From UHGV virus genome UHGV-0205693: 36,794 nt of DNA; one strand, 5' to 3'. Within the stretch, counting starts at the first letter, position 1. Every line of letters begins with the position of its first letter. The translations under genes were made by a program, and so were the position numbers. Source of the DNA: a virus. Of the stretch, positions 4,308 to 16,072 are shown one piece after another. The notes beneath the pieces were generated by a model. It made no database searches. It was given only the letters and a program-made list of their open reading frames with translations, and had not been told where the DNA came from.

Positions 4308-4463
4308 GGTCTTTCCTCAGCATGCCGGCTATCGCGTTGTCTGCCGTATCGCAAGCGCGTTGGATATCGGACTGGGTCAGAGTCCTCTTTCTAACGCTGG
4401 CTGATAGCCTGCCAATTTTGATATCGAAATCTGAAAGTAAAAGTGTGCCTGGTTGCCAACGTA

Positions 4464-5270: not shown

Positions 5271-7411
5271 TGTGCTTTCTCCTCGGCTTTATTCAGTTCT
5301 TTAATGCGGCCATCCTTAATGGTGATGAGTCGGCGGAGTCTGCCAGACAGATAGCGTTCATGCTGCGTATCGCCGTTGGCCTGGGCGGCTTTAATGTGTA
5401 CATCGATCTCACGTGCAATAGGGGAAAACACGCCATTGATTTCGTTCACCGTCACTCCATGTGCCAGGGTATTAGCAACGCGGCTTAATTTGTCGTCAAA
5501 CTCCTGGCGAAGCCGTGCTGCATCTTCGGCTGATTCGCTGGCGTTCTTCAGGTCAAACTCGGCCTTATTCTTCTGGCGGTACTCCAGATTGTCGTAAAGC
5601 CCCATAAAGATATCGCCGCTGAATCCTAGGCCGGATAACGCCTTTTTAGTGGCATCGGTAAGGGATTTTTTAGCGGCTTCCCCATCGCAGATCGGGCCAT
5701 ATTTGCTGCCGTAAATGTAGGGTGTGCAGCCGTAGGCGTATTCTTCTCCGCGAACATCGTTTACCAGATACCAAAGGCGAATTTTCATTACGTGATGTTT
5801 TTCAGTGAGGAAACCGCCATTACCATCTGAGATCAGTTCCCATGTATTGTTACCGTCACTTCCTTTTACAGTCCGTGTAATTGGCGCTCCATCGTCAAAG
5901 CGTTCTTCCAGTATATCGACGCCCCAGCCGCTGCCTTTCAGGCCGAACTCACGGGTAGCCAGCATCGTAAGATACGTGCCGTTGATTGAGGTGCCGCCGC
6001 CGTTTTGCGTGAATGCTTTGGTAAAGCGCTCATCGGTTTTGAAGACACGTTTCCACAGCGCCAGGTTGTCTTGTTCGGTGCCAGGATTACCGACTGATCG
6101 CACGACTTCTTCAGCGCTAGGCATGGTTTCTTTCTGGCTTATGTGCTCTACCAACTGCTCCACATCATCAGCAATTCTTTGCGCTTTGACGCTCAGTTTT
6201 TCCTCTGGCTCGCTGGCGATGTAATTGTCTGACGCATAAACGCCATAGCCCATATCGTTGAGCGTCTCACGCGCCTGTTTGGCCTGGGTATCGGTTACCA
6301 CCGGCTGTAGTGCTTCCGCTTTTTCGACCACGTTTGAGGCGGTATTTTGCGTTGCCTCTGGTTGTTTAACGGATCCTGTCTCGGTTTCTTCAAAGCGGCC
6401 GTTTGCCTCCAGCCATGAATCAATGTGGCGGCGTAGGCTGTCAGGGAAATGGTAGGTATCTTTTGCCGGGACGTTCTGCACTACGCCAAAAATACTGTCT
6501 CGGTCATATTTGAGGATGTGCTCCGTGGTGCGAAGCGCCATTGACCAACGTTTAAAATCTTCGCGCTCGTCTGCAATGATTTTCTCAGCATCGCGAAGGT
6601 TGCCTGATAATACTGGCGCGTCGGGAGAAATAGGGAGTAGGGCGACAGCGATCTCCTGATCCAGTGTTGCATAGGTATGTTTATAACCACGTTTGGGCGC
6701 GATTTTAACGTTGAAATCAGTGCTGGCGGTGCCGAGTGAGGAATTTTGGCCTGGTACCATTTCTTCACGTTTACCGGGATTCTCAAGCCAGCGTTTTACA
6801 AATTGAGAAATAGCCGCTTTGCCCGGAGTCTGGTTTTCAAAATGGGAGAAGATGCCCTGGATCAGATTGTTCAGACCTTCCACGTGCATATGTTTAACTG
6901 GCTCGTTGTTGTGCAGGGCGCAAAGCACATTGAAATTAAAACGGTCATCCTCTTCCATGGTTTCGTCGTGGTTATCCAGATCATCAAGATAATCTACAAC
7001 CTGCGAATAGAGCTGGCCGTTCATCTCTAATTTGCTGAAGAGTAATACAGCTGCAAAACGCTCCCTAGGGGATACCGTCATCAGATCGATAACTTCATCG
7101 CCTGTCGGCAGCTCGGTGACGTCACCATTCCGGATGTTAGCCACCCATTTTTCACCGTCAAAGGTATTTTCTCGGGCGAACTGCTCATCGAACTGGCCAA
7201 CGGTCGGCAGCGGCTGGCCCTCTTCGTGTTCCCACAGCTTAGGTTTGAAATAGTTATCACCATTTGCCGGGTAAGATTCCCAGAGTTTGCCGGTGATAAT
7301 GCTTTCGGCGACTTTCTTGTTTGGTGCTTCGACGGCGATCGCCAGCTGCACGGCGCCGCAGTCTTTGATTGCCGATTTTTTTGGCTCGAATAAGCCGTTG
7401 TAGATGGTCAT
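5267..7411 (-). CDS. 714-aa protein with a C-terminal Erf/Rad52-like single-strand annealing domain fused to an N-terminal region of about 450 aa of unknown function
   Basis: C-terminal segment TDATKKALSGLGFSGDIFMG and upstream YAYGCTPYIYGSKYG resemble the Erf/Sak/Rad52 SSAP signature (DA..RAL..LGfG). Sits in the early-left operon next to Gp157. Confidence 0.45.
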   Translation of the reverse strand: MTIYNGLFEPKKSAIKDCGAVQLAIAVEAPNKKVAESIITGKLWESYPANGDNYFKPKLWEHEEGQPLPTVGQFDEQFARENTFDGEKWVANIRNGDVTELPTGDEVIDLMTVSPRERFAAVLLFSKLEMNGQLYSQVVDYLDDLDNHDETMEEDDRFNFNVLCALHNNEPVKHMHVEGLNNLIQGIFSHFENQTPGKAAISQFVKRWLENPGKREEMVPGQNSSLGTASTDFNVKIAPKRGYKHTYATLDQEIAVALLPISPDAPVLSGNLRDAEKIIADEREDFKRWSMALRTTEHILKYDRDSIFGVVQNVPAKDTYHFPDSLRRHIDSWLEANGRFEETETGSVKQPEATQNTASNVVEKAEALQPVVTDTQAKQARETLNDMGYGVYASDNYIASEPEEKLSVKAQRIADDVEQLVEHISQKETMPSAEEVVRSVGNPGTEQDNLALWKRVFKTDERFTKAFTQNGGGTSINGTYLTMLATREFGLKGSGWGVDILEERFDDGAPITRTVKGSDGNNTWELISDGNGGFLTEKHHVMKIRLWYLVNDVRGEEYAYGCTPYIYGSKYGPICDGEAAKKSLTDATKKALSGLGFSGDIFMGLYDNLEYRQKNKAEFDLKNASESAEDAARLRQEFDDKLSRVANTLAHGVTVNEINGVFSPIAREIDVHIKAAQANGDTQHERYLSGRLRRLITIKDGRIKELNKAEEKAQ

Positions 7412-7443
7412 TGGTCTTTCCTCGTTTGTAACTAATTCGCTGG

Positions 7444-7728: not shown

Positions 7729-7772
7729 GGTCTTTCCTCTTGGTTACAGGCGCAGGTCACGCGCCCAGTTAA

Positions 7773-8183
7773 TTAAAACGGTACGTCGCTTTCTTCAATC
7801 GGAGAGTGGTCGATGCACAGCAGCTGCTGGATCTGGTCTTCAATAACGCTTAACTGTTTGTTGGCATCAGCAGATATTTGCTCTTTCTTCGCGCGAAGGG
7901 CATTAACCTGCATCCCGATAATATCGATAGGCTCTAAAGCAGGAATGGCAACCTCTACCGTTTTAGTTGTAACGAGAACATACAGATCAGGGTACTGCTG
8001 TGACATGTCACAGGTGAATGAGTGATAAGACGTTGGTAGGTATGGATTGGTTGTTGCCATAACGTAGATAGTTACGGGGATGGTAAGCGCTTCCATAGCG
8101 ACTCCTTGGTGATGTATACTCAGAGCCGATCGGCGACTCTGTCGTTGGTCTTTCCTCGCTACAGGGTTGGTCCCCTGTAGCAT
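7773..8183 (-). CDS. first gene of the pL operon. Candidate N-like antiterminator if translated from 8183 (N-terminal arginine-rich segment PVARKDQRQSRRSAL). An alternative start at 8098 has a strong AAGGAG ribosome-binding site and gives 108 aa.
   Basis: The position immediately downstream of the pL leader, boxB-like hairpins and a tL1-like terminator fits an N-like role. The arginine-rich motif is present only in the long form. Confidence 0.35.
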   Translation of the reverse strand: MLQGTNPVARKDQRQSRRSALSIHHQGVAMEALTIPVTIYVMATTNPYLPTSYHSFTCDMSQQYPDLYVLVTTKTVEVAIPALEPIDIIGMQVNALRAKKEQISADANKQLSVIEDQIQQLLCIDHSPIEESDVPF

Positions 8184-8300
8184 TCCTGGCGGATTGGTCT
8201 CCGCTGGGGTAAATCAGCCCACTCCGGTGGGCTTTTTTACGCCTGAATGTTGCCGGTCTTTCCCGGCTGTCAGGGTGGTCAGTCCCGTTGGTCTTTCCTC
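8145..8300 (-). repeat. two copies of a start-codon-less CGAGGAAAGACCAA unit (decoy RBS) in the pL leader, identical to the functional RBS unit at 7414-7427
   Basis: TTGGTCTTTCCTCG occurs on the plus strand at 8145-8158 and 8287-8300 with no ATG following on the minus strand. Confidence 0.7.
8226..8249 (+). terminator. rho-independent terminator on the plus strand (AGCCCAC-tccg-GTGGGCT followed by T6) inside the minus-strand operon
   Basis: Perfect 7-bp stem and a T6 run, seen directly. Confidence 0.6.
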
Positions 8301-8431
8301 GTTACCGTGTGAAAAAAATGCCCGGGGCGCCCGGGCCAAGACTACACACAGCAATTCGTATTCGTTGCGGTCTTTCCCGCATGTCATCGTACTGTCGGCG
8401 ACCCGAAGAATTATTGCCCGTCTTTCCGGAC
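8252..8431 (-). ncRNA. pL leader region with three boxB-like hairpins: GCCGG-GAAAGA-CCGGC (8252-8267), GCGG-GAAAGA-CCGC (8367-8380), GUCCG-GAAAGA-CGGGC (8416-8431)
   Basis: 5-bp stems with identical purine-rich GAAAGA loops. The third pairs better as minus-strand RNA (a G-U wobble on that strand, a C-A mismatch on the other). They lie between pL and the first early gene, as nutL does. Confidence 0.45.
8311..8336 (-). terminator. tL1-like intrinsic terminator in the pL leader (GCCCGGG-cgc-CCCGGGC followed by U7 on the minus strand)
   Basis: Seen directly. Located upstream of the first early-left gene. Confidence 0.6.
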
Positions 8432-8487
8432 TGTCAGAACTGTTTCTGAACAACTGCCGCGTGGTTAGTGCCTCGTTGATGGGAGGA

Positions 8488-8516
8488 ATATTAATAATGA
8501 TAATATTATCGGTCAA
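8488..8516 (-). promoter_or_regulatory. pL candidate (TTGACC, 17 nt, TAATAT on the minus strand) within an AT-rich OL region containing AATATTA-type palindromes (ATAATATTAT; AAAATATT..AATATTTT)
   Basis: Hexamers and spacing were read from the reverse complement. The same AATATTA palindrome family appears in OR. Confidence 0.5.
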
Positions 8517-8569
8517 CATTAAAATATTAATTACGACAATATTTTTTGTATGGTGTTGATAATTTAGAT

Positions 8570-8620: not shown

Positions 8621-9076
8621 TTATTGCTTACGTGTTGCCAATAGCTCTCTAAATAAGCGGTCGAAACCTTCTACTTTCTCTTTTAAATCAGATAAATGGC
8701 GTTCTTTTTCGCTCTGCGGAAGCCTCTCATACAAATCTATAAGTTCTGCATGTTCTGGGTTAAGAAGTTTCCAGCCTGGTCCTGATCTATCTTCGAGATA
8801 CTCCCCTGATTTCCTAACGTAATTCATCATCTCGGCTAGGTCGGGTCTGATCTCTTCTGGTTTTACCCCAAGTAGAGAGGCGAATTTTAATGTGGCATCT
8901 GTGTTTAGCGGAGTTGTGCCATTTAAGTAATGGCTTACTGACGCCTGTGTGCTAAAGCCAAGCACCTCCGCTGCCTTCTCCTGAGTCAGACGTAAAGTTA
9001 CTTTTTTCTCGTTCCAGATATCACGAAGGCGTTTGGCAGCTTCGCGCTCTACGGCGTCAATGGTTTTCTTTCTCAT
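8621..9076 (-). CDS. cI: cI-like HTH (XRE-family) repressor, 151 aa, lacking a recognisable S24 autopeptidase domain
   Basis: N-terminal HTH (LTQEKAAEVLGFSTQASVSHYLNG). Divergent from cro across the operator region. The C-terminus is too short for S24 and has no Ser/Lys dyad context. Confidence 0.75.
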   Translation of the reverse strand: MRKKTIDAVEREAAKRLRDIWNEKKVTLRLTQEKAAEVLGFSTQASVSHYLNGTTPLNTDATLKFASLLGVKPEEIRPDLAEMMNYVRKSGEYLEDRSGPGWKLLNPEHAELIDLYERLPQSEKERHLSDLKEKVEGFDRLFRELLATRKQ

Positions 9077-9119: not shown

Positions 9120-9170
9120 GCTATTGACGAAAAATATTAACGTTATTAATATTAATTCTGTCCAATCACA
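9120..9170 (+). promoter_or_regulatory. OR/pR: TTGACG (9125-9130), 17 nt, TAATAT (9148-9153), overlapping the 12-bp palindrome ATTAATATTAAT (operator)
   Basis: Seen directly, 30 nt upstream of cro. Confidence 0.6.
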
Positions 9171-9182
9171 GAGGCCCTAACG

Positions 9183-9416
9183 ATGAAACTGAAAGACTAT
9201 TTAAAAACATCTGGTGTTCGGCAGCATGAATTCGCCGCACTGGTTGGGAAAACTCAAGGCTACGTAAGCCGAATTGCTGCGGGAGAATGTTTCCTGTCCG
9301 CCGCGACAGCGTTGGAATGGTCTGCTGCTACTAAGTATCAGGTTACGCCGCACGATCTTCTCCCAAATATTTATCGAAAACCAACTGACGGACTGCCGGA
9401 ACAGAATGCAGCTTAA
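9183..9416 (+). CDS. cro: Cro-like HTH regulator
   Basis: 77 aa with the HTH QHEFAALVGKTQGYVSRIAAG. First gene rightward of OR. Confidence 0.75.
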   Translation: MKLKDYLKTSGVRQHEFAALVGKTQGYVSRIAAGECFLSAATALEWSAATKYQVTPHDLLPNIYRKPTDGLPEQNAA

Positions 9417-9478
9417 CAATCTGCGTTATCGAAATCTGATTACGCTTAATCAATTTTCAGCGACAGGAGACGCTCGAA

Positions 9479-9925
9479 GTGGAATACCTCGAAGAACTTA
9501 AACGAGAGATCTTTAACTGGGCAGCGGAAAGCGGGCAGGAGCTGGTTGCTATCGAGATAAGCCGCATGTGGTTTCGTCTTGGTGGTAATACTGGTTTGCT
9601 GAAGCTGCACCAGATCGAAGATGCAGATGGAAACGCCGACTGGCGGGCAATCAACAACAACCGCCAACAAATTTTTCGTTGGTTGCGAGGCGAGACCAGA
9701 GCCGCGAGAGCCAAAACTCTGGCGCTGGTCAAAGCGATGGAAGCGGCGCTGCCGGCAGAACGTTACGCGCGCTTGGGTATGTCCACCCAGTATTTAATTT
9801 GTGTGGCTATTCGTGAGTTTGCCGCAGCGATTATCGCGTTGTTACTCGACGCCAGAGACGGGCCGCAACAAGTCGCAAGAGCATTGCAAGCTATGCGTGA
9901 AACACAGCGCCTGACCAGCGTTTAA
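9479..9925 (+). CDS. phage CII-like regulatory protein (CP76-type), GTG start
   Basis: 148 aa in the position after cro. Resembles the 'phage regulatory protein CII (CP76)' family from memory. AGGAGA RBS 8 nt upstream of the GTG. Confidence 0.45.
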   Translation: MEYLEELKREIFNWAAESGQELVAIEISRMWFRLGGNTGLLKLHQIEDADGNADWRAINNNRQQIFRWLRGETRAARAKTLALVKAMEAALPAERYARLGMSTQYLICVAIREFAAAIIALLLDARDGPQQVARALQAMRETQRLTSV

Positions 9926-9945
9926 CCTGTACCGAGGAAAGACCA

Positions 9946-10167
9946 ATGAGAACACAAGACCGCATCACCTGGCGGAATGGGTTTCGCCGGAACGGGGTAC
10001 AAGTCCCGATGGAAGATATCGAATCGATTTTCGAAGAGCGTCGCGCTACTGCGCTGACAATCTGGGAACGCTACGAACTGCGCAAGGCAGACCTGCAGGA
10101 AGCGGGACTCACCCAGAAAGAATACGAAATCGCCTGCCGTCAGCTGGCTGACTCGCTGGGGATCTGA
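9946..10167 (+). CDS. hypothetical protein (73 aa) preceded by the conserved boundary cassette
   Basis: ORF with the ACCGAGGAAAGACCAATGA start context. Confidence 0.5.
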   Translation: MRTQDRITWRNGFRRNGVQVPMEDIESIFEERRATALTIWERYELRKADLQEAGLTQKEYEIACRQLADSLGI

Positions 10168-12565: not shown

Positions 12566-12603
12566 CCGCGCCTGACCAGCGCGATTTAACCGAGGAAAGA
12601 CCA

Positions 12604-15630: not shown

Positions 15631-15653
15631 CGAACAACCATACCAGATAAAAC

Positions 15654-15683
15654 AGAACCGCCAGAAATGGCGGTTTTCTTTTG
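15654..15683 (+). terminator. rho-independent terminator (AACCGCCA-gaaa-TGGCGGTT followed by TTCTTTT)
   Basis: Perfect 8-bp stem with a GAAA loop and a T-rich tail. Confidence 0.75.
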
Positions 15684-15809
15684 AATTCAAACGGATATTT
15701 TCAGTTTTATTGTTGATTTTTAACGATTCGTGCTCTTAAAAGTTTGCGCTCACTGTCAGTTGGTAGTATATATACTGTGAATTTATACAGTATTATCAGC
15801 GAGGGAGAG

Positions 15810-16004
15810 GTAGTGATTGATAAGAAAGATGCAGGAGACCTTCTCCCCGATGATGGTGATGTGCTGATAACATGTAAAAAGGGCAAAATTAAGAAGACGA
15901 GAATCGTCCATTCCGATGAGCACGTAGCGACACTTAACGCGTTGTTTGAATTAGCTAAATTGACTGGTTATACCATTATCAAACCAGACGGCAATATGCT
16001 ATAA
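15810..16004 (+). CDS. small moron protein (about 64 aa, GTG start) in an AT-rich island with its own promoter-like sequence (TTGCGC, 17 nt, TATATA) and RBS GAGGGAGAGG
   Basis: AT-rich relative to neighbours. Promoter-like and SD elements at 15750-15805. Confidence 0.4.
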   Translation, partial: VVIDKKDAGDLLPDDGDVLITCKKGKIKKTRIVHSDEHVATLNALFELAKLTGYTIIKPDGNML

Positions 16005-16072
16005 TTACCCCGTTGGCCTGAACACCCAACACCATGTAATTCTGAACAATTGCTGCGCTAAAGGGGAACCCA

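Follow-up and report, generated by a model that had tools for sequence, protein, structure and literature searches.

In phage lambda, early-left transcription starts at the repressor-controlled promoter pL and runs through an untranslated leader (nutL) with short G+C-rich hairpins and purine-rich loops, the boxB hairpin having a 5-bp stem and a GAAAA or GAAGA loop, and a terminator has to be passed before the recombination and integration genes. The lambda N protein is small, carries an N-terminal arginine-rich motif and is encoded by the first pL gene; boxA is located a few nt 5' of boxB, and boxB hairpins are present on the pL and pR transcripts alike. In HK022, a lambdoid phage lacking N, a conserved structured RNA occupies the very start of the pL transcript; this putL element, ~70 nt long and with two stems, lies immediately 3' of PL (PMC9378689). 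Trans-acting phage-borne small RNAs (sRNAs) are also known whose 3' end results from intrinsic termination within a phage operon or at its head, namely DicF of the Qin prophage (PMC5069750) and StxS, the short pR' transcript of Stx phage, which is a by-product of a terminator later overridden by antitermination (PMC7547250). The antisense RNAs lambda OOP, P22 sar, P1/P7 C4 and P4 CI RNA form a further group of small structured molecules with loops that pair with ribosome-binding sites (RBSs) or leaders of early genes. In the case of C4 and CI, the target site is repeated in the leader of the operon under their control. On the host side, RprA (RF00034) is an Hfq-dependent sRNA encoded by a stand-alone, Rcs-controlled gene; its last 47 nt correspond to a processed RNA, generated by RNase E (PMC6202311), which is found in vivo and regulates targets (PMC9262595). 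Here we compare with these systems bases 8094-8520 of the virus genome UHGV-0205693 (36,794 nucleotides; hereafter, the window). This segment is the early-left (pL) operon leader of a lambdoid prophage whose immunity region is of the Rac type (YdaS/YdaT), and the prophage probably came from Klebsiella. An earlier note on this DNA had interpreted the leader as an N-like antitermination system.

From sequence comparison, the reading that we favour, with a probability of roughly 0.5, is that the segment would be an RNA-based control region instead of an N/nut site, including an RprA-like RNA, an antisense sRNA and an array of decoy sites. The combination of a host-sRNA mimic at the end of a pL leader, a convergent sRNA matched to an RBS module of the phage lineage and decoys within the leader appears undescribed in the literature searched; searches by literal leader sequences returned unrelated primers only, and nothing relevant was found on phage RprA homologues.

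The earlier note had the layout right: pL is under repressor control, the leader is long and structured, and an intrinsic terminator precedes all open reading frames (ORFs). The promoter, TTGACC-17-TAATAT, was found at 8516..8488 on the minus strand, with A8480 as the likely start, heading the conserved CATCAAC leader sequence. It lies inside a 21-nt operator repeat (AATATTAATAATGATAATATT), two copies of which form OL (8487-8507 and 8523-8543) while a third is located at pR (9133-9153), and pL and pR constitute a mirrored 30-nt inverted repeat. The leader RNA, of about 170 nt (8311-8480, minus strand), ends at the intrinsic terminator, is conserved in about 30 related leaders and is predicted to adopt a closed multibranch fold (minimum free energy, MFE, -63.5 kcal/mol; z -3.3). 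Its 5' end (CATCAACGA..) was retained where the promoter and repressor differ. In the MFE fold, the 5' leader segment CCACGCGGCAGUU (8452-8464, minus strand) pairs with the RprA-like seed described below and closes the leader as a single multibranch structure, and this long-range helix was also present in the centroid structure. One-sided changes preserve the pairing in the leaders of the L107 type, and the predicted helix would sequester the RprA-like seed until processing. Between 8452-8464 and 8343-8356 (minus strand) we counted 12 pairs, 3 of them G.U.

The terminator (8312-8336, minus strand) was found before the first ORF, as the earlier note had stated, with a stem at 8336-8320 of 7 G-C pairs, a CGC loop and a U7 tract at 8318-8312. 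Its position is conserved despite many different stems. Several relatives have a weaker-looking version (5-bp stem and a 2-3 nt spacer before the U-run), and a leaky terminator may suffice for read-through.

Some of these features could also be explained by a put-like cis-acting RNA, whose conserved 5' leader (CAUCAAC... plus hairpins) would bind RNA polymerase and suppress the terminator free of protein. The first ~120 nt are indeed conserved directly 3' of pL behind different immunity regions, the leader occupies the putL position and no antiterminator protein was found. However, this explanation is very improbable, because unlike HK022 put, which lies downstream of both PL and PR and acts on RNA polymerase in cis, the leader has no counterpart on the pR transcript, it shows no sequence similarity to put and it folds into four short hairpins within a long-range helix in place of two long stems. 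Moreover, no similarity was detectable in INPHARED except for BUCT708/709, hairpins 1 and 2 are replaced in the L107-type leaders, and the conserved terminator and the RprA-like 3' end would serve no purpose if antitermination were constitutive.

Directly 5' of the terminator lies a 22-nt segment, ACGAAUUGCUGUGUGUAGUCUU (8338-8359, minus strand), which is identical to both E. coli RprA and the RprA consensus of Rfam at all 22 positions. Together with the terminator it makes up an RprA-like segment (8359-8312) that the earlier note had overlooked. Using cmscan in E-value mode, RF00034 matched 8414-8310 (minus strand) at 43 bits (E 5.6e-4 for a 601-nt search), and matches at homologous places in the related loci L001 (50.2 bits), L002 (46.8) and L004 (35.7) all ended at the terminator as well; at gathering thresholds Rfam returned nothing in the window, so that RprA was exposed by the E-value mode only. 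As in RprA, a G+C hairpin and a U-run come immediately after the identical stretch, and the preceding hairpin aligns to RprA stem-loop 2. The phage copy differs from RprA in its location, an operon leader under a phage repressor, in its low score (43-50 bits, with a gathering score of 70) and in the lack of the 5' stem-loop and of the rpoS-pairing CCCCUGAGUGAAAC. The sequence ACGAAUU is present in the window but is not conserved in related leaders. Activation of RpoS is not claimed here, since the rpoS-pairing stretch of RprA is not kept in the phage copies. The seed identity and the terminator at the leader end imply that leader termination should release an RprA-like RNA. Such an RNA would resemble DicF and StxS in the origin of its 3' end, with no sequence relation to either, and it would differ from both in mimicking a specific host sRNA; furthermore, pL should be silent in the lysogen, whereas the pR' promoter of StxS is constitutive.

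The module of seed plus terminator is not restricted to this lineage. With dozens of different terminator stems it was found in more than 120 viral contigs of IMG/VR. It also occurs in 69 sequenced phages, among them lytic phages of Erwinia and Dickeya. It consists of UUGCUGUGUGUAGUCUU, then directly a terminator hairpin and a U-run, and is almost always unannotated; among its carriers are Erwinia Ea9-2-like lytic phages, Erwinia/Dickeya jumbo phages, Rac-SA53, phiES15, LLS, Flotzy and phiNP. A few matches at contig ends probably represent the rprA gene of the host. In other phage lineages, the same seed was found at the end of additional large structured RNAs, with a recurrent GGAGTGCGCTYCCRGTTGTGGT ... 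CACCACAAC.

The three hairpins with the identical hexaloop GAAAGA reported in the earlier note were located on the minus strand at 8431-8416 (hairpin 1, GUCCG-GAAAGA-CGGGC), 8381-8366 (hairpin 2, UGCGG-GAAAGA-CCGCA) and 8267-8252 (hairpin 3, GCCGG-GAAAGA-CCGGC, 3' of the terminator), accompanied by an invariant hairpin that we termed hp0 (8434-8449, UUCAGAA-ACAG-UUCUGA), none of whose 6 pairs ever varies, and by a small hairpin (8395-8406, UCGG-GUCG-CCGA) with two pairs changed on both sides. The hairpins were kept in relatives with compensatory and G.U changes, as expected of conserved RNA structures: hairpin 1 shows a CG<->UA change and has a U.G pair on the pL strand, and hairpin 2 shows CG<->AU and GC<->GU changes. 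Over hp0, hairpin 1, the small hairpin and hairpin 2, 98.7% of the cells were paired, versus at most 42% with the partners slid. All copies taken together gave 30 distinct hairpin contexts, with stems of 4-6 bp around an invariant G-GAAAGA-C; 10 of the 30 contained G.U pairs in the pL sense and none contained an A.C within the stem. The strand sense of the first 118 nt of the leader was judged by these per-hairpin counts and not by whole-fold comparison. The GAAAGA hairpins belong to the RNA of the pL strand. The contexts other than hairpins were linear NAG-GAAAGA-CCA(A/G) units.

It is at these hairpins that antitermination of the N type, relying on a phage or host protein different from the 136-aa product proposed in the earlier note, has to be considered. 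An invariant purine-rich loop closed by a G-C pair on variable stems of 4-6 bp is typical of protein-binding hairpins; these resemble lambda boxB, and two of them precede a strong terminator that all pL genes need passed. A possible protein partner could be the 73-aa product encoded beside the cII-like gene, which has a basic, conserved N-terminus (DRITWRNGW) and co-occurs with the leader. In boxB a 5-bp stem is combined with a GNRA-like pentaloop, bound by the arginine-rich motif of N, and the loop here is an invariant hexaloop on stems of 4-6 bp; 3-8 hairpin copies are present, some 3' of the terminator, and the same sequence doubles here as an RBS module. In addition, the related leaders L107, L117, L123 and L125 are devoid of both upstream hairpins and have kept the terminator, and the occurrence of the same 9-13 nt, unstructured, at many RBSs stays unaccounted for.

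The arginine-rich protein on which the N-like proposal was founded turned out to be an artefact. The earlier note had weighed two starts for the first pL gene, 8098 and 8183, the latter giving an arginine-rich N-terminus. The ATG at 8181-8183 (minus strand) has no Shine-Dalgarno (SD) sequence and lies between two hairpins of the opposite-strand RNA described below, and the upstream arginine-rich frame was absent, or stopped within 3-11 codons, in 22 of 27 related leaders. The protein indeed begins without the arginine-rich motif (ARM), though not at 8098: the true start is the ATG at 8096, six bases 3' of an AAGGAG (8107-8102), so that the SD and the gene, which encodes 107 aa, span 7773-8107 on the minus strand. 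Its product belongs to PHROG 2479, a family of unknown function that aligns over 1-107 of 107 residues, and its 69 homologues are typically 107 aa long, with an invariant M1 and the N-terminus MEALTIPV shared with the window protein. From the non-conserved upstream frame and the true start at 8096 it follows that the arginine-rich peptide is, as judged from the sequences, a translation artefact of RNA-structure sequence.

Other components of an N system were not found either. There was no credible arginine-rich ORF elsewhere in the window, nor any other plausible ARM ORF with an SD, and no N- or Q-type antiterminator family was found among the early proteins. For boxA (CGCUCUUA-like), no match to YGCTCTTWA with up to one mismatch was found in 8094-8481 (minus strand) or 9150-9950 (plus strand). 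The rightward transcript has no GAAAGA hairpin that could serve as a nutR equivalent, the plus-strand copies at 9936 and 12594 being linear RBS units. Finally, hairpin 3 and both start-less units are located 3' of the terminator that they were meant to override, and the terminator itself is 5' of the first gene, while that of lambda comes after N. The N-like reading of the earlier note therefore had to be abandoned, and the version with another factor is unlikely. What the evidence favours is the fallback remark of the same note, that GGAAAGACC, common to hairpin loops and genuine RBSs, may indicate translational regulation. Small leader peptides were considered too and rejected, as neither frames nor starts are conserved.

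The 107-aa protein was predicted by AlphaFold2 (predicted local distance difference test, pLDDT, 87.6) to fold into a three-stranded sheet and one long helix of 35 residues, for which Foldseek returned no PDB match with E <= 0.001; it is not N-like. Its C-terminus is EESDVPF (DADEIPF in Serratia homologues), and this ..D(V/I)PF is similar to the acidic tip in which SSB ends, as would suit a recombination accessory beside the exonuclease. On this sequence likeness, the protein may be a recombination accessory or an SSB-client mimic.

Between hairpin 3 and the SD of the 107-aa gene, we found on the plus strand a candidate antisense sRNA gene of about 115 nt (8125-8239), overlooked in the earlier note, with a conserved fold, covariation and a terminator-like site. 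It comprises a 5' hairpin (8128-8150), a seed, UUGGUCUUUCCUC (8145-8157), two stem-loops, SL2 (8158-8181) and SL3 (8184-8209), both with the loop UUGGUC, and a terminator with a stem at 8216-8233 and a T-run to 8239. Upstream of it, a putative -10 (TATACT, 8115-8120, plus strand) reads TATACT or TATAAT in all 27 variants and in 10 additional genomes, and this holds also for Pseudescherichia loci where the adjacent gene differs. The sRNA contains no AUG and has no Rfam match, C4 included. One genome per species being considered, it was found in ten Enterobacterales species of six genera (Serratia, Raoultella, Citrobacter, Escherichia, Pseudescherichia and Rosenbergiella), in addition to about six chance matches, as expected.

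Several lines of comparative evidence show that this three-hairpin block is selected on the plus strand. Its fold is stable (MFE -59.6 kcal/mol; z -6.2), the plus-strand fold was more stable than that of the minus strand in 27 of 27 distinct variants (mean -43.7 versus -37.4 kcal/mol), and each variant contains 2-5 G.U pairs on the plus strand and about none on the minus. For SL2 and SL3, 92% of the cells were paired, against at most 51% when slid, and 11 of the 18 pairs were changed on both sides; compensatory cells amounted to 61, versus 21 in shuffles, with none of 500 shuffles as high. The last hairpin has a T-run on the plus strand only, and its loop on that strand is UCCG, UUCG or CUCG, of the UNCG type. 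RNAalifold mis-drew this terminator, as two terminator types lie one column apart, and the named structure was counted instead. A GATC (Dam) site at 8128-8131 (plus strand), a palindrome loop just 3' of the -10, was kept in 26 of 27 variants, a hint that control of the sRNA promoter might be coupled to methylation or replication.

The same data bear on the explanation that the region has no dedicated function, its repeated units being remnants of gene starts and scars of recombination at a cargo hotspot, with GAGGAAAGACCA being an efficient RBS spread by recombination. The leader is such a hotspot, with inserts or small ORFs in relatives, and in some relatives an ATG does follow the start-less units. 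Nevertheless, the hairpins covary around an invariant loop, the plus-strand structure is under strand-specific selection in 27/27 variants and the seed is invariant across genera, which makes absence of function the least probable of the explanations considered. A CsrB/Rsm-type sponge for CsrA was discarded as well, as the loops are GAAAGA on the pL strand or UUGGUC on the plus strand, with no A(N)GGA, and the rsmX match scored 22.6 bits against a gathering score of 56.

The link between this sRNA and the rest of the early region is provided by an RBS motif. GGAAAGAC occurs 10 times in the window versus 0.9 expected, a number reached by none of 100 shuffles; all copies point along early transcription, and one-mismatch variants are at chance level. 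On the minus strand, the motif is part of the RBS of a 94-aa gene (7730-7737; ATG 7728), of the 714-aa exonuclease gene (7414-7421; ATG 7411) and of an excisionase-like gene (4309-4316; ATG 4307), and on the plus strand, in the rightward operon, of a 73-aa gene (9936-9943; ATG 9946) and a 222-aa gene (12594-12601; ATG 12604). The seed UUGGUCUUUCCUC is invariant and complements GAGGAAAGACCAA, the RBS module of at least five early genes, its complement GAGGAAAGACCA(A) being located directly 5' of the starts at 7411, 7728, 4307, 9946 and 12604. At the exonuclease gene, CGAGGAAAGACCAAUGAC can form an 18-nt pairing with the sRNA, with one G.U, spanning the SD and the AUG. Both UUGGUC loops of the sRNA are of the YUNR type and complementary to GACCAA.

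The leader itself contains further copies. The two start-less CGAGGAAAGACCAA units noted earlier were recovered at 8301-8288 and 8158-8145 (minus strand). The first is followed by ACG, in relatives the next triplet is ATG, ACG, AAG or GTG, and there is no conserved ORF; the second is the exact complement of the sRNA seed, in columns that are invariant. Furthermore, GGGAAAGACCGG in hairpins 2 and 3 could form an 11-12 nt pairing with the seed if G.U is allowed. Outside the leader, GGAAAGACC reached a density of 3.61 copies per 10 kb in the 34 loci that bear the sRNA, as opposed to 0.13 in 96 phage loci of other kinds, a 28-fold difference, and 89 of 96 copies sit 0-3 nt before the start codons of many different genes. 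At 8271-8290 (minus strand) and in relatives, the C-rich words CCTGACCAGC / CTGACAG (GACCAR) are repeated between the GGAAAGACC units; they could pair with the UUGGUC loops via G.U or represent a Rho-utilisation-like sequence.

A motif found at the RBSs of many unrelated early genes, and recurring in the leader in hairpin and linear versions, would also be expected of a protein operator. In this explanation, a phage RNA-binding translational repressor or an endoribonuclease in the style of T4 RegA/RegB reads GGAAAGACC, the leader copies titrate the protein or feed back on it, and the antisense RNA is unrelated to the motif. We consider this quite unlikely, because no RNA-binding protein was identified as a candidate, and because it cannot explain the repeated UUGGUC loops of the sRNA or the invariant start-less copy opposite the sRNA 5' region, which is partly single-stranded in the MFE fold.

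In the RNA-based control that we favour, the events could be ordered as follows. By sequence and homology, transcripts of the repressor-controlled pL fold into the conserved hairpins; most should stop at the terminator (8336-8312), and the last ~50 nt of the resulting ~170-nt leader RNA copy the processed, active 3' part of the Hfq-dependent host sRNA RprA. On the opposite strand, comparative structure points to an sRNA gene of ~115 nt, presumed to be expressed, which has a -10 of its own and three hairpins that covary and ends in a Rho-independent terminator. Its seed UUGGUCUUUCCUC and two UUGGUC loops would pair with GAGGAAAGACCAA(UG) on both arms, and the pairing would block translation of the exonuclease, 94-aa, excisionase-like, 73-aa and 222-aa genes, while pL transcripts that read through the terminator would be fully complementary to the sRNA in cis. 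The last step is the weakest one: the start-less units and GAAAGA hairpins of the leader may act as extra pairing sites, so that once pL fires abundant leader RNA would soak up the sRNA, or else the sRNA might act on the leader. Compared with the phage antisense RNAs cited above, the RNA described here is convergent to pL and has no Rfam match, and its predicted targets are an RBS module on many genes of both early operons and not one gene.

A more ambitious formulation, which we put forward only tentatively, is that of a private RBS code in one lineage of temperate enterobacterial phages: GAGGAAAGACCA(A)UG on many early genes would be read by one sRNA and complemented by a decoy leader and a portable RprA mimic. 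The convergent sRNA in the pL leader would then hold the early genes off and the pL leader decoys would lift the block, and the RprA mimic, a module used by lytic phages too, would link the phage to the host envelope-stress and RpoS sRNA network.

A number of observations weigh against RNA-based control and limit our confidence in it. The RprA matches were sub-threshold in all four loci (43-50 bits, 36 in L004, versus a gathering score of 70), the rpoS-pairing stretch CCCCUGAGUGAAAC is absent, and RNAduplex comparison of the leader with the rpoS leader, like that of the sRNA with the window, was swamped by duplexes with long interior loops. No convincing -35 was found for the sRNA promoter, and the MFE structure has the UUGGUC half of the seed base-paired within the 5' hairpin. 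Hairpin 1 has only 8 nt in common with the seed. As the seed never varies, covariation between seed and target gives no test, and as the sRNA is antisense to one motif copy, its complementarity to the other copies is automatic; a protein reading GGAAAGACC would yield the same complementarity picture. The sRNA-bearing loci are all relatives, and the motif enrichment may partly reflect shared descent. A search for a parallel seed/RBS system in other phage lineages with the RprA-like module found none. Lastly, the passage of RNA polymerase through the terminator is left unexplained by the model.

If the model were true, a whole set of early genes would be controlled after transcription by a single sRNA, a common RBS module and a decoy array in the pL leader, a logic unlike that of the antiterminator and repressor proteins dominant in textbook accounts of lambdoid phages. 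A further consequence would be that the active end of a host sRNA is copied by phages, with widespread tapping of the host Hfq/RprA network, and that the 500-1000-nt 'empty' gaps in hundreds of E. coli and Klebsiella prophages hold at least two RNA genes.

Regarding the genomic setting, the window carries an immunity region of the temperate-phage type, with a helix-turn-helix repressor gene (8621-9076, minus strand) followed by its own terminator, a YdaS-type Cro-like gene (9183-9416, plus strand), a YdaT cII-like gene (9479-9925, plus strand) and replication genes further to the right. The left arm encodes the 107-aa and 94-aa proteins, the 714-aa RecE-like exonuclease, a Gam/Gp157-like protein, the excisionase-like protein and an integrase. 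The nearest protein homologues were from Klebsiella and Raoultella, BUCT708/709 were the sole sequenced phages with DNA similarity, also for the leader (blastn; INPHARED), and related leaders were present in 454 complete E. coli genomes. The gap between the repressor gene and the 107-aa gene measures 500-1000 nt in E. coli prophages and IMG/VR contigs and was never annotated there.

The leaders of relatives have a modular order. The conserved 5' end CATCAACGACGCACTAACCACGCGGCAGTTGTTCAGAAAC, behind differing promoters and repressors, is followed by hairpins 1 and 2, by an optional structured insert of ~330 nt or small ORFs (the window has neither), by TTGCTGTGTGTAGTCTT with the terminator, by one to several GGAAAGACC units, by the three-hairpin block and, last, by the SD of the 107-aa gene. 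The highly structured ~330-nt insert was found in most relatives between hairpin 2 and the RprA-like seed, equivalent to about position 8360 of the window (approximately 6790-7040, minus strand, in L001; 2720-3050 in L002; 2610-2920 in L004). There are two unrelated types, one of them with a tRNA T-arm-like GGTTCGATTCC; the inserts gave no Rfam match and no tRNA call by ARAGORN. In L021 and L039, small protein-coding inserts are located between hairpin 1 and hairpin 2, in the same place as the RNA inserts, and the occurrence of coding and RNA inserts at one leader site suggests that the pL leader is a cargo hotspot.

On the rightward side, the gene for the 73-aa protein (9946-10167, plus strand; PHROG 2465, a family of unknown function) was always found 3' of the cII-like gene, with the N-terminus DRITWRNGW conserved, and upstream of it about 26 nt are homologous to the segment opposite the sRNA (CCTGTAcCGAGGAAAGACCAA). 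Further to the right, a 440-nt gap before a NinB-like gene (15631-16072) contains a weak, sub-threshold match to the IS128 sRNA on the minus strand (15637-15860) and an exact boxA-like TGCTCTTAA at 15731 (plus strand).

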